NCBI GenBank assembly: GCA_021203325.1
Contig: JAJQBL010000007.1
Span: 4,285-68,284, forward strand
Reading direction: 5' to 3'
DNA length: 64,000 nt
Origin: Clostridiales bacterium
Lineage (GTDB): Bacteria; Bacillota; Clostridia; Oscillospirales; Oscillospiraceae
Each line of letters starts with the position of its first letter. Positions within the stretch are counted from its first letter, which is position 1. This document shows, piece after piece, positions 22,620 to 48,442 of this stretch. The notes below the pieces were generated by a model. It was given only the letters and a program-made list of their open reading frames with translations. It had not been told where the DNA came from and searched no databases. The translations under genes and the position numbers were made by a program.

Positions 22620-22740
22620 ACACGATGTCTTCAGGGCAGGGTGAAATTCCCGATCGGCGGTAAAGTCCGCGCGCGTAACTGCATGAACCGGTGCAACTCC
22701 GGTACCGACAGTATAGTCTGGATGAAAGAAGATGTGTTGT
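22620..22740 (+). promoter_or_regulatory. FMN riboswitch (RFN element)
   Basis: Contains the RFN core strings cttcAGGGCAGGGTGAAATTCCCGATCGGCGGTAAAGTCCGCG ... CCGGTGCAACTCCGGTACCGACAGTATAGTCTGGATGAAAGAAGA. It lies upstream of a riboflavin transporter gene. Confidence 0.9.
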
Positions 22741-41595: not shown

Positions 41596-42582
41596 ATGAT
41601 GGAACAAATTTGGCTGGAATGCAGCATCGACACCGCCCCCGGCTGCCTGGACGCCCTGGCAGCCTACCTGACCGCCTGCGGCGTGGAGGGGCTGGTGCTG
41701 GAGGACGAATCCGACTTCGCCGCCTTTGAAGACGAGAACCGCCCCTTCTGGGATGAGGTGGACGAGGCCCTGAAAGCGGAGCGCCGGGGCGTCACCCGGG
41801 CCACCTTCTACGTCACCGCCGACGAGGAGGGCCGCTGCCGCCTGGACGAGATCACCGCCGGGCTGGAGGGATTCCGCAGCCGCACCCCTCAGGACGCCGG
41901 GACCCTGGCCGTCGCCACCCGCACCTTACAGGAAGAGGACTGGGCCAACAACTGGAAGCGGTATTACAGCCCCTTCCCGGTGGGGAAGCGGCTCTACGTG
42001 GTGCCGGAATGGATGCGGGGGGAGCCTGTGCCGGAGGGCCGGACGCCCCTCTACCTGAATCCGGGGCTGATTTTCGGCACCGGGAGCCACGGCACCACCC
42101 GCTTCTGCCTGGAGGGGGTGGAGCGCTACGTCCGCCCCGGCGACCGGGTGCTGGACCTTGGGACGGGCAGCGGCATCCTCGCCATTGCCGCCCTGCGGCT
42201 GGGGGCCGCCTCCGCTGTGGGCTGCGACATCGACCCCAAGGCCACCGCCGTGGCGGCGGAGAACGCCGCCTTCAACGGCATCGGCCCGGAGCTGCGGGTC
42301 TACACCGGCAACGTCATCGGGGACAGGGACCTGCAGGCCCAACTGGCGGGCCGGTACCAGCTGGTGCTGGCCAACATCGTGGCGGACGTGATTCTGCCCC
42401 TGTGCCCCCTGGTGGGGGACTATCTGGCGGAGGGCGGCCTGTTCCTGACCTCCGGGATTCTGGAGGGCCGGGGGTCCGAGGTGGCCGACGCCCTGACCGC
42501 CAACGGCTTTGCCGTTCTGGAGCGGCGGGAGCGGGACGGCTGGGTCAGCTTCACCGCCGCGCGGAAGGGTGAAACCCCGTAA
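41596..42582 (+). CDS. prmA: Ribosomal protein L11 methyltransferase
   Basis: WANNWKRYY, FGTGSHGTT and the SAM motif LDLGTGSGILAIAA. Confidence 0.92.
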   Translation: MMEQIWLECSIDTAPGCLDALAAYLTACGVEGLVLEDESDFAAFEDENRPFWDEVDEALKAERRGVTRATFYVTADEEGRCRLDEITAGLEGFRSRTPQDAGTLAVATRTLQEEDWANNWKRYYSPFPVGKRLYVVPEWMRGEPVPEGRTPLYLNPGLIFGTGSHGTTRFCLEGVERYVRPGDRVLDLGTGSGILAIAALRLGAASAVGCDIDPKATAVAAENAAFNGIGPELRVYTGNVIGDRDLQAQLAGRYQLVLANIVADVILPLCPLVGDYLAEGGLFLTSGILEGRGSEVADALTANGFAVLERRERDGWVSFTAARKGETP

Positions 42583-42601
42583 AACGGGCCGGCGTTTTTC
42601 G

Positions 42602-42654
42602 GAAAAAGGCAAAAAAGAAGTGACCCGGCTCTTAACTCAGAACCGGGTCACTTC
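42602..42654 (-). terminator. Strong intrinsic terminator oriented for the minus strand (the hairpin may also stop prmA)
   Basis: 12-bp stem gaagtgacccgg / ccgggtcacttc (42617-42628 / 42643-42654). On the minus strand it is followed by TTTTTTGCCTTTTT. Confidence 0.75.
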
Positions 42655-43368
42655 TGTTCACTGTCAATTTGCAGCTTCATCCTACCGGACGCCTCCTTTT
42701 TTTCTGATTTTGTTGATGCTGACGTTCCACTTTGCCACTCTGTCCGCTGATCCTTTTGTCATTCAGCGTTTTTTTGCAGCGTACCCGCCTTTCTGAACTT
42801 ACGCTTCTCAACTGCAATTCAGGGAAGGATACGAAAGACGCTCACATGAGAGCCTGTCACGAACGGGAATTCAGCAAATGCTCTGTGGTATTCCACACCT
42901 TATTCTATGACCTTCGTATTGTCCTTTGATCGGAGCCCCGGTTTTCTGAAAACCGACACCCGAACAACTCGTTCCCGGTGACGATTGAGGCGCTTCGGAA
43001 CTGTCTGGGCGAATCCTGTACGGAACCCATCGCCGTTGCCTGTTACCTCTGCCGGTTAGTCGTCCGGTTCCTTCGGAACTGCCAATCCTGCGCGCTGTTT
43101 CTGCAACAGCCGGAACCCGGAAGGAATTCAGCGAATGCTGTGCGGCACCCCGCACCCTCTCGTGGTATCCTGCGCTCTGTGGTCACTTCTCTGGAATCTC
43201 AGCTTTCCAACCAATCGTCTGCCTGAGCGACTGGAATTGCGGAAGTGGTTCAGCGAATGCCGTACCTTGTACTGCGTCTCCTCTCTGCGCCGCCTGCGCC
43301 GCTTCATCGGCCTCAGGCTCCCGCACGCGGAGCAAATGAATCAAAGGGGAAAGTGGAAAGAGTTCGCT

Positions 43369-43925
43369 TCACCTGTACATTGGCCCGTACCTCCCGGTGT
43401 TATGGTTCTGGTGACCCAGCGGCCTAACACATCCTTTCTGTCAGCAGGTGGAAAAAAGGTGGATGGGGCTAAGCTAAACTGCACATTAGACTGTACCTCC
43501 TTATGTTATTTGCCTGGTTTCTTGAAGTCCAGTTTCATAACACATCGTCCTTTCAAACGAAAGAGGAAAAGTGGAAGGAGCTAATCAAAACTGTTCATTG
43601 GACCGTACCTCCTTGTGTTATTTGACTGCTATTTTGAAGTCCAGTTTCATAACACATCGTCCTTTCAAACGAAAGAGGGAAAGTGGAAGGGCCTAATGGA
43701 AACTGTACATTGGACTGTACCTCCTGCAATTCGAAGTCGGCGCCTTGCAATGGAGTTTCGCTTCAACAAGTCCTTTCATACAGAGAAAAGGGAACAGGCT
43801 GTTGTCGAGTCAGCTCTCGTTTTCACTGTTCTTTGGAGGGTACCTCCTTGTTTAGATTCTGCCGGTTGCCAGGGCGGCTGCCTGTCTTACGCTAGGTCTT
43901 AGGACTCTCCTCCTTCCTGTTGGAG
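43369..43925 (-). repeat. Six tandem ~106-123-nt modules (SD, mini-ORF, CU tract, hairpin)
   Basis: GGAGGTAC anchors (minus strand) at 43394, 43500, 43612, 43724 and 43847, plus a degenerate copy near 43913. An identical 45-nt core occurs at 43522-43566 and 43634-43678. Confidence 0.85.
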
Positions 43926-43954
43926 TGGATTGGGTGGTTTCTTTTGATGTATTA

Positions 43955-43983
43955 AGGATACCACAGGTCGGCCATCTTGTCAA
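43955..43983 (-). promoter_or_regulatory. Near-consensus sigma-70 promoter driving the non-coding unit
   Basis: On the minus strand: TTGACA (43983-43978), 17 nt, TGgTATCCT extended -10 (43963-43955). An A/T-rich UP-like tract lies upstream (43984-44030). Confidence 0.6.
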
Positions 43984-44151
43984 GCACTTTTTTAAATAAA
44001 AATCACAAAAATATATTAACAATTTGTGAACGATTCAAAAAACCGTTGTGTTCTCCGCCTGTTTCCGTTATAATACCAATAGCACCGAGCCACATATACC
44101 GCATCCGCCGCCTCTGCGGCCCAGATGCGCACGATCTGGAGGAAGAATCTC

Positions 44152-44331
44152 ATGGAATTGCTGAAACGGAAAATCACCTCTGCGGGCAGCGCCTGCCTGG
44201 TCTGCGGAATTATTTCCATCGCCACCGGCCTGACCACCGGCATCATCCTGCTGGCCCACGGCGGCCGCCTGCTGGCGGAGCGCCGGCACTGCGACGCTCT
44301 GCGGGAGCAGCTCTACGGCAGCGACCTGTAA
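44152..44331 (+). CDS. Small single-TM protein (59 aa)
   Basis: GGAGGA lies 8 nt before the ATG at 44152. It has the TM segment ACLVCGIISIATGLTTGIILLA. A TATAAT hexamer sits at 44069-44074. Confidence 0.45.
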   Translation: MELLKRKITSAGSACLVCGIISIATGLTTGIILLAHGGRLLAERRHCDALREQLYGSDL

Positions 44332-44378
44332 CCGGATACGCTCTTACGTCCCACCCCGCTGTGGGCTGATGCAAAACT

Positions 44379-44413
44379 GTGCGGAGAAGCGGTAGTTTCT
44401 TCGCACTTTTTTT
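44379..44413 (+). terminator. Intrinsic terminator after the small membrane ORF
   Basis: Stem gtgcggagaa / ttcttcgcac (one G-U pair) followed by T7. Confidence 0.7.
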
Positions 44414-44669
44414 GCCTTGGCGGGCCGCCTGGGTGTGAGCATGTCCGAAAATTAGTTCGAAATGCAAGATTCTGTCAGCTTTGTACGAAATTTTACAAAT
44501 TTCTTACCTGTTTTTTACAGAGGGCGGATATGGAAATCTTCCGATAAACTGGTATAATAGGGAAGGAAATCTTGCAGGTCGATCATACTTCGGCGCGTTT
44601 CTGCACAGCCCGGGTCATCCCACAGTCTGGAGCGCCGCCCTGAGACAGAGATAAGGGAGCTTGAACGGA

Positions 44670-47826: not shown

Positions 47827-47908
47827 TGGGAAAATGATAGACAAATCATTAGAAAAAAGATAAAATAAAAACGGAGGCAGCGCAATAAATTGGAATTTGC
47901 AGGTGTGA

Positions 47909-48373
47909 ATGATGAAAACTTTATACATGATTGGTGGCACTATGGGGATTGGAAAAACAACCGTATGCCAACAGCTTAAACAAGATTTACAGAATAGCGT
48001 ATTTCTTGACGGAGATTGGTGCTGGGACGCAAATCCCTTCCAAGTAACCGATGAAACCAAAACTATGGTGATTGATAATATCTGATTTTTGTTAAACAGC
48101 TTTCTGAAATGCTCTGCATATGAAAATATTATTTTTTGCTGGGTTATGCATGAGCAAAGTATTATCAATTCTATTATTGAAAAGCTGGATACAAAGAACT
48201 GTGTTGTGAACTGTATCTCTCTTGTCGCAAACGAAGAGAGCCTGCGGGGCAGATTATCAAATGATGTTGAAAGAGGGATTCGCACTACGGATGTTATTGA
48301 AAGAAGTGTTGCAAGGATACCACTATATCTAGCACTCAACACCATTAAAATTGATACCAATAAAAAACTGTGA
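47909..48373 (+). pseudogene. P-loop (AAA_33-like) ATPase/kinase with an in-frame TGA
   Basis: MMKTLYMIGGTMGIGKTT (Walker A) ...DGDWCWDANPFQVTDETKTMVIDNI-TGA(48083-48085)-FLLNSFLKCSAYENIIFCWVMHEQ... continues in the same frame as the 48089..48373 ORF. Confidence 0.7.
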
Positions 48374-48442
48374 CTATGATTGTCAACGAAATCAAGCAAC
48401 TGTGATATTGACAACTTCCAGATTATCAAGGCCCCCAGGCCG

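Follow-up and report, generated by a model that had tools for sequence, protein, structure and literature searches.

Decoy RNAs are known in bacteria both for proteins (CsrA) and for small RNAs, with CsrB and RsmZ sponging protein and RosA of Bacillus subtilis sponging small RNAs, and minigenes are known as isolated curiosities. In Firmicutes, FliW antagonises CsrA, and to our knowledge no CsrA-titrating RNA has been described there. STAB-SD elements and ribosome-mediated 5' stabilisers (cryIIIA, the ermC leader) are Shine-Dalgarno (SD)-like, bind the 30S subunit with no protein being made and thereby block 5'-to-3' decay of Firmicutes mRNAs. The element analysed here lies on the minus strand at positions 42583-44151 of a 64,000-nt stretch from the genome of an uncultured Clostridiales bacterium of the Oscillospiraceae (GCA_021203325.1, contig JAJQBL010000007.1, positions 4,285-68,284), the whole of which is called the window below. 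It appears to be a real, selected orphan RNA gene absent from Rfam, and it is best described as a tandem array of minigenes or initiation sites.

Minigenes with a strong SD hold and recycle ribosomes, which re-initiate without leaving; very short open reading frames (ORFs) can be toxic through the peptidyl-tRNA that they release, and minigene-bound ribosomes can protect RNA from RNases (PMC8708949). Like the copies described here, natural and synthetic minigenes (the lambda bar regions; the two-codon minigene in the axe-txe leader, PMC8708949) consist of an SD, a start codon, 2-8 sense codons and a stop. However, the known minigenes are single elements in a phage genome or mRNA leader and exert their effect on the host or on a gene that follows them. 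Here, by contrast, an orphan RNA followed by no gene has 4-5 copies of one conserved site as its body, and even the spacer sequence is shared between distant lineages. A minigene-array RNA is thus a variant of known ideas, namely decoy RNAs and minigenes.

The gene-free gap of 1,569 bases extends from prmA (41596-42582, plus strand) to the gene of a 59-aa predicted membrane protein (44152-44331, plus strand). No credible protein gene was found in window positions 42583-44151, the longest ORF being 149 aa. The minus strand of this gap is predicted to be a stand-alone orphan RNA gene running from promoter to terminator. Its sigma-70-type promoter (43955-43983) consists of TTGACA (43983-43978), a 17-nt spacer and the TG-extended -10 element TATCCT (43963-43955), and an UP-like A/T-rich tract, read from the sequence, lies upstream of the -35 element (43984-44042). 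The promoter scored 10/12, with the TG present in addition, and was the top promoter-like site in 42300-44500. The intrinsic terminator (42602-42655) has a stem at 42655-42616 of 17 counted pairs, 9 of them G-C, a 6-nt loop and the tail TTTTTTGCCTTTTT, with the T-run TTTTTTGCCTT directly after the stem. When the start is placed ~7 nt past the -10 element and the end at the terminator T-run, a primary transcript of ~1.35 kb is predicted (42602-43948). The computed GC content is 0.44-0.59 in the block, compared with 0.62-0.72 in prmA and 0.58-0.63 downstream. On the minus strand no gene lies beyond the terminator, and the next gene is the convergent prmA.

The same arrangement was also found 3' of prmA in two relatives, L001 (PrmA 97% identical) and L002 (93%), and on the Logan contig L091 (from SRR15221336), where the element is ~99.8% identical. 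Indels of 1-2 nt separate the orthologues all through the 3' half, so that they share no long frame. An earlier note, made by reading the letters, had already proposed an orphan unit here. Its claim of no plausible gene, its promoter TTGACA-17-TGgTATCCT with A/T tract (coordinates included), its by-eye impression of lower GC, and its reasoning that an RNA with nothing downstream on its strand is no leader all agree with the present results, and the promoter is in addition conserved. Its terminator hairpin with T-run was likewise borne out, but not the 12-bp stem length.

The most distinctive feature of the RNA is a repeated 17-nt motif, GGAGGTAC[R]GTCCAATG (as RNA, GGAGGUAC[R]GUCCAAUG), which consists of an SD, a fixed 9-nt spacer and ATG and is preceded by an A/U-rich linker. 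At up to three mismatches, five copies of the 17-mer occur in the 64-kb window against 0.17 expected, all of them on the minus strand, within the RNA unit and one per module of a tandem array (modules A1 to A5). Four of the five start minigenes of 3-5 codons: the A2 motif GGAGGTACAGTCCAATG is followed by MYSFH (43693-43724), the exact consensus of A3, GGAGGTACGGTCCAATG, by MNSFD (43581-43612), the A4 motif GGAGGTACAGTCTAATG by MCSLA (43469-43500) and the A5 motif GGAGGTACGGGCCAATG by MYR (43369-43394), each with its stop codon. The fifth copy, A1 (GGAGGTACCCTCCAAAG, 43831-43847), has three mismatches and no start codon, and its SD can self-pair as GGAGG-TAC-CCTCC. By eye, a degenerate 5'-proximal copy without start codon can also be recognised (GGAAGGAGGAGAGTCCTAAG, A0, 43898-43917). 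The minus strand contains seven GGAGG and the plus strand one (shuffle mean 2.2). Five SD-plus-start sites lie on the RNA strand, whereas 500 shuffles averaged 0.36 and never exceeded 3. Genuine genes of the window use GGAGG-N7-9-ATG; hence the 9-nt spacer of the motif falls in that working range.

The same motif was found in a second RNA. A profile of the A modules gave weak, clustered matches in three loci from metagenome-assembled genomes (MAGs) of rabbit-gut Clostridia, L048, L057 and L070. These loci contain a second predicted orphan promoter-to-terminator unit of ~670 nt (L048 3932-4638, minus strand), which is also present in L106. Its promoter TTGACA-17-TACAAT (11/12) stands behind a phased A/T tract and is followed by an ORF-poor stretch and then a terminator. 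The unit is flanked by a SpoIID-like gene and by one for a membrane protein and lies ~1.3 kb upstream of prmA. It carries four exact or near-exact copies of the 17-mer, one of which has GTG instead of ATG, so that the start codon is kept, and these open the minigenes MR, VKQF, MNVLALRYKN and MF, again closed by stop codons. Two or three further degenerate copies are visible by eye, and the motif spacing is irregular (51-237 nt). PrmA of this lineage is 46-47% identical to that of the window, and its identity to PrmA of the other fetched loci does not exceed 50%. The unit gave no blastn match to the window element, and profile search recovered only the motif and its immediate flanks; it also had no Rfam match. 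Among the 92 fetched loci, GGAGGTACNGTCCRRTG or a match with up to two mismatches was present only in L001, L002, L091 and a second Logan contig, L092, and in L048, L057 and L070. In both lineages the RNA gene lies less than 2 kb from prmA, but every locus was fetched through prmA.

Taken together, eight intact copies in two lineages have the form of bar-type minigenes, GGAGG-N9-ATG/GTG followed by an ORF of 2-10 codons (5, 5, 5 and 3 codons in the window; 2, 4, 10 and 2 in the L048 type). Of ATG-opened frames in the window overall, 12% stop within 5 codons and 21% within 10. As all eight intact copies stop within 2-10 codons, the comparison argues that the early stop is a selected feature and not chance. 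The few-codon ORFs that the earlier note had set aside are in fact the conserved feature, as start sites with minigenes. The motif is thus common to two otherwise unrelated orphan RNAs, which look like a putative, undescribed family of ribosome-engaging RNAs.

Sequence conservation was consistent with function in both lineages. The promoter block of the window element (44079-43980) is 96-98% identical in L001 and L002, with a single substitution in the promoter of L002, within the spacer, and all three orthologues share the same terminator stem, the loop differing at one base in L002. Compared with L002, the promoter and 5' half are 90-96% identical, while four-fold sites are 79-88% identical; identity to L001 is 100% over segment 43879-43650, against 92% at four-fold sites. 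Between species, the L048-type unit shows 95.3-95.6% identity from promoter through terminator, whereas four-fold sites of the three genes flanking it are 73-82% identical in the same species pairs. The alignment collapses directly past the terminator, and only 2 of the 68 motif columns are variable. From these comparisons, both RNAs are judged to be functional genes under purifying selection, at least in their motif-bearing parts.

The body of the window element is built of tandem modules. Two internal repeat families, as the earlier note had described, were confirmed, one with a period of ~112 nt and 4-5 copies and the other with a period of 122-135 nt and 4 copies. The A array (43285-43859, minus strand) contains five modules of 106-123 nt, the middle three being 86-88% alike, so that the youngest copies lie mid-RNA. 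The B array (42767-43282, minus strand) contains four modules of 119-137 nt with the core RGCATTYGCTGAA at 43261, 43139, 43017 and 42882, and has neither SD nor start codon. A profile of the B modules matched the A modules at full length (E 4e-4) and the reciprocal search also gave matches, which argues that the two families are distant relatives and that the whole RNA goes back to one ancestral module, present in about ten tandem copies that are diverging. L091 has 4 A modules and the window 5, while L001 and L002 have at least 6 each; the last two counts are lower bounds because short-read assemblers left the 112-nt repeats unresolved. Runs of N were seen within these arrays, of 10 N at ~8052-8064 of L001 and of 100 N at ~7950-8050 of L002. 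With head-to-tail modules of strain-dependent number, the locus qualifies as a variable-number tandem repeat (VNTR), a term that describes how it evolves and leaves a function possible.

The distribution of the element is narrow. Relatives with 77-80% PrmA identity lack it; they share the upstream order of FAD-dependent protein, Rce1-like protein and prmA and carry genes for a Dabb protein, an S4-domain protein, YabP and DivIC after prmA, and remoter relatives have yet other genes there. The earlier note had placed the element in the position of rsmE, which is not what the nearest relatives indicate, as their prmA is followed by the Dabb and S4-domain proteins. Because ordinary genes follow prmA in relatives, the element is read as restricted to one lineage and sitting at a break of gene order. 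The divergently oriented gene upstream of the RNA promoter, that of the 59-aa protein (44152-44331), encodes a predicted single-pass membrane protein with no Pfam family; an identical copy is encoded beside the element on L091 and L092, and the first bases of the gene align in L001 and L002.

Such a distribution would also suit a neutral or near-neutral VNTR-like repeat located where synteny breaks and perhaps derived by duplication from the 5' region of a gene since lost; it may be transcribed but would have no function of its own. The narrow lineage at a gene-order break, the module numbers of 4, 5, at least 6 and at least 6 across assemblies, the B half diverging at about the four-fold-site rate and the weak covariation speak for this explanation. 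We consider it clearly unlikely, since the motif recurs in an independent, distant unit under strong purifying selection (95% versus 73-82%), the window element changes less in its 5' half than four-fold sites do and has kept its promoter and terminator, and the minigenes are consistently short.

In both RNAs, a strong promoter, the lack of a cargo gene, repeated start sites with a fixed spacer, an immediate stop and a terminator are co-conserved, and repeated ribosome engagement is therefore the simplest mechanism that uses all of them. We assign a probability of about 0.35 to the reading that the element is a ribosome-engaging minigene-array or decoy RNA. According to this model, the strong housekeeping-type promoter and UP-like tract would drive a ~1.35-kb RNA that is ended by the intrinsic terminator. 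The RNA would have grown through repeated tandem duplication of a module of ~110-130 nt, with the younger A modules keeping a near-invariant start site and the older A0, A1 and B1-B4 having lost it. At each of the repeated sites a 30S subunit would be loaded and a few codons translated before termination, with re-initiation possible at the next site. In trans, the RNA could titrate initiating ribosomes, initiation factors or initiator tRNA, or generate peptidyl-tRNA like overexpressed minigenes. In cis, bound ribosomes could shield the long untranslated RNA from 5'-exonuclease and Rho; A0 and A1, which lie close to the 5' end and have no start codon, would fit a likeness to the STAB-SD stabilisers, although the latter precede a real coding sequence and the element has no cargo gene. 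The transcription of the RNA, its ribosome binding and its cellular effect are inferred from sequence. That the two RNAs might be the first members of a dedicated ribosome-titrating minigene-array class, abundant transcripts with repeated, optimised initiation sites as their sole working parts that set global translation capacity or peptidyl-tRNA load in some gut Clostridia through capture and cycling of 30S subunits or initiation complexes, is a bolder proposal which we hold to be rather unlikely.

Several observations weigh against ribosome engagement as the function. GGAGG is predicted to be paired, with an unpaired probability of 0.01-0.24 in eight of nine copies and 0.49 in one, against a mean of 0.41, and accessibility to ribosomes is therefore not obvious. 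An ordinary initiation site needs no conserved spacer. The spacer may extend the pairing with the 16S 3' tail GGAUCACCUCC (GGAGGU, an AC bulge, then GGUCC; modelled duplex -18.8 versus -12.1 kcal/mol for the SD alone), and the GAUCC spacer variant of L057 and L070 pairs slightly better, but the extended pairing is not significant, as 8.8% of spacer shuffles equal it. The B half evolves at about the neutral rate (identity 0.73-0.89 versus 0.79-0.88), strains differ in module number, as they would for a neutral tandem repeat, and conservation in the L048 lineage spans the whole RNA, pointing to functions beyond ribosome loading. Finally, only two lineages are known. The sole metagenome scan (two cores 75-105 nt apart plus NNCAG) gave only two chance matches, at a parA-parB junction, and its negative result says little because the pattern was too strict for members of the L048 type.

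The conserved spacer would be better explained by a sequence-specific binder than by a ribosome. Hence the RNA might instead be a target-mimic sponge, in which the 17-nt site copies the initiation region of a real mRNA and soaks up a regulator, such as a CsrA-like or other RNA-binding protein or a base-pairing small RNA, minigene translation being incidental. The sponge idea of the earlier note thus stays alive through modules that bear a repeated, highly conserved 17-nt site. Like CsrB, RsmZ and RosA, the element is stand-alone and strongly promoted, with many copies of a short SD-like site in variable number. The motif also contains GGA, and A1 and A3 read ACAAGGAGGU, which agrees in 9 of 10 positions with ACARGGAUGU, reportedly the CsrA consensus from systematic evolution of ligands by exponential enrichment (SELEX).

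Nevertheless, the unit of 17 nt here includes a start codon with an early stop after it and is not predicted in hairpin loops, unlike in the CsrB, RsmZ and RosA sponges. A CsrB/RsmZ-type, loop-presented GGA was accordingly rejected, since the GGAGG of eight of the nine copies has the low unpaired probability given above and the conserved block is 17 nt through AUG. Neither the 64-kb window nor the L048-type loci showed a gene with this initiation region; the sole match with three mismatches, before a 385-aa gene, resembles an ordinary ribosome-binding site. Furthermore, the bases 5' of GGAGG differ between the lineages while the conserved block extends through AUG, and a sponge does not predict stops 2-10 codons after every copy. 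We therefore regard this explanation as unlikely. A literature search for ribosome-sponge or repeat-SD RNAs found no described counterpart.

Whether the RNA acts through a fold was addressed by structure prediction. Folding z-scores (20 shuffles each) were -3.1 for the B (3') half, -0.9 for the A (5') half and -2.9 for the L048 unit. In the consensus fold of the B half over three orthologues, 29 variable pairs are kept and 24 broken on the minus strand, compared with 17 and 31 on the plus strand; over three orthologues of the L048 lineage, 5 pairs are kept and 5 broken. Only a few local hairpins show compensatory changes. In the hairpin at 43317-43333 (minus strand), L002 has three compensatory pair changes and one change of G-C to G-U, and the G-U pairs favour the minus strand. 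Substitutions in the rabbit-gut lineage tend toward hairpin loops, and variable sites are weakly depleted in the single-sequence-predicted stems of the L048-type unit, equally on both strands (p 0.07 and 0.03). The case for a large conserved fold of the ~1.35-kb RNA is thus weak, and so is that for the large structured RNA of the earlier note (z -3.1 versus -0.9; 29 kept versus 24 broken). In the modelled RNA, segment AGUGGCAAAGUGGAA near the 3' end (42725-42739) is 87% complementary to the tract UUCCACUUU(U/C)CC of modules A2 and A3; these partner tracts (43562-43576 and 43674-43688, inverted repeats I2 and I3) could be engaged in long-range pairing.

These data bear on the alternative of a large structured RNA in the manner of OLE, ROOL or GOLLD, in which the motif is a structural or multimerisation element and start and stop codons are coincidental. 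The element resembles OLE, ROOL, GOLLD, raiA and HEARO in size class, orphan intergenic place and host phylum. The partly self-complementary motif (GGA...GUAC...UCC), the z-scores of -3.1 and -2.9, the hairpins with compensatory or loop-only changes, the predicted pairing of the SD in most copies and the conservation of the whole L048-type RNA would all suit such a molecule. However, it matches none of the covariance models of these RNAs, is built of tandem modules of unfixed number and is very narrowly distributed. The z-score of the A half is -0.9, the ratios of kept to broken pairs are 29:24 and 5:5 in the two lineages, and the depletion in stems is weak and strand-equal. Above all, a structural role does not predict the joint retention of SD spacing, start codon and early stop, and we find this explanation distinctly improbable.

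The comparison with known families was made by searching Rfam at the gathering threshold and at E<=10 for both the block and the L048 unit. No family, including OLE, ROOL, GOLLD, raiA, HEARO, 6S, tmRNA, RNase P, SRP and riboswitches, reached its gathering threshold. The best covariance-model match in 42400-44400 was that of the terminator hairpin to a microRNA model (E 0.11), and so no family reached E 0.1. ARAGORN found no tRNA or tmRNA in the block either, in line with the earlier note, which had recognised no known RNA class. Elsewhere in the window, an FMN riboswitch aptamer (22623-22737, plus strand; 108 bits versus a gathering threshold of 66) was the only gathering-level Rfam match.

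Longer small ORFs (sORFs) are also present in the RNA. Near its 3' end, the SD AAAGGAGG precedes a 10-codon sORF, MKLQIDSEQK (42648-42699, minus strand; ORF 42680-42648), the last 8 nt of which lie within the terminator stem. All four nucleotide differences from L002 in this sORF are synonymous and the SD is kept. Modules A2 and A3 contain the 10-codon sORFs MKLDFKIAVK (43618-43650, minus strand; region identical in the orthologues) and MKLDFKKPGK (43506-43538, minus strand), each with its stop 5 nt before the next motif, and in module A4 the sORF start is lost. In L048, MKVFRRRQTKF is placed likewise relative to its first motif. The evidence that these 10-11-residue sORFs are translated is suggestive but thin, many tiny ORFs having been inspected.

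It follows that the RNA could be read as an mRNA for such peptides (MKLQIDSEQK, MKLDFKKPGK, and MKVFRRRQTKF in L048), with the minigenes as coupling or loading devices. In addition to the synonymous changes, this explanation can draw on the fact that the sORFs of both lineages begin with MK(L/V) and stop a few nt before a motif copy. Four synonymous changes are nevertheless weak after multiple testing, the peptides differ between the lineages, A4 has lost its sORF start, no modification or export genes lie nearby, and most of the 1.35 kb would be left unexplained, so that a peptide mRNA seems a long shot. A leader-peptide attenuator was rejected as well: the 3' sORF overlaps the terminator stem, yet no minus-strand gene follows.

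Type III toxin-antitoxin RNAs (ToxI, CptI) are also tandem-repeat RNAs behind their own promoter. Their repeats are 34-45 nt long and are followed by a terminator and the toxin gene, whereas the modules of the element are 106-137 nt long, no gene follows on its strand and the next gene is the convergent prmA; this identity was therefore discarded. As 17-bp direct repeats in an A/T-rich intergenic region, the motif copies might in principle be iteron- or operator-like protein sites acting at the DNA level. In both lineages, however, all copies are oriented with promoter and terminator, a DNA site needs no SD, spacing, start codon or early stop, and the spacing in L048 is irregular (51-237 nt), which makes such an element barely credible.

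A decayed protein gene was excluded in several ways. Among the nine ORFs of 56-149 aa, the sole Pfam match at E<=1 was at chance level (10 bits, E 0.59). The Dabb, S4, YabP and DivIC proteins of relatives gave no tblastn match in 42583-44151, so a decayed copy of these genes is not indicated. A search of 5.8 billion predicted proteins with the ORFs of the elements returned only near-identical relatives (P0121/L091 and P0122/L106), and for the 149-aa ORF only its own orthologue. A low-GC island was seen at window ~47880-48380 (0.36 in a genome of ~0.6); it contains a P-loop kinase-like ORF (MKTLYMIGGTMGIGKTT...) with a stop near 48084, seemingly continuing in another frame, and is likely a horizontally acquired pseudogene.

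Mobile elements gave no counterpart. The element had no blastn match in phage and plasmid collections, and the module pattern had 0 matches in viral contigs. The 17-mer itself gave 13 single viral matches (7 distinct sequences), five of which are starts of ordinary genes of 64-487 aa; such matches are expected by chance because the pattern contains an SD plus ATG. Among the fetched loci, clustered SD-containing repeats were found only in the two lineages, apart from an unrelated repeat in L064, a Candidatus Epulonipiscium MAG. That repeat (2228-2790) has four copies of GACCTTGAGGTTTCACC, 155-197 nt apart, gave no Rfam or tRNA match and may be a coding repeat.

If the locus were a neutral repeat after all, it would indicate that lineage-specific tandem duplication can build kilobase-scale units resembling transcription units. 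For finding further members in genome and metagenome collections, GGAGGTACRGTCCRRTG in at least two copies within 1 kb offers a 17-nt handle. If the minigene-array reading is true, an orphan RNA made of repeated start-stop sites would unite decoy RNAs with minigenes, and it would point to control of the ribosome pool at the RNA level.

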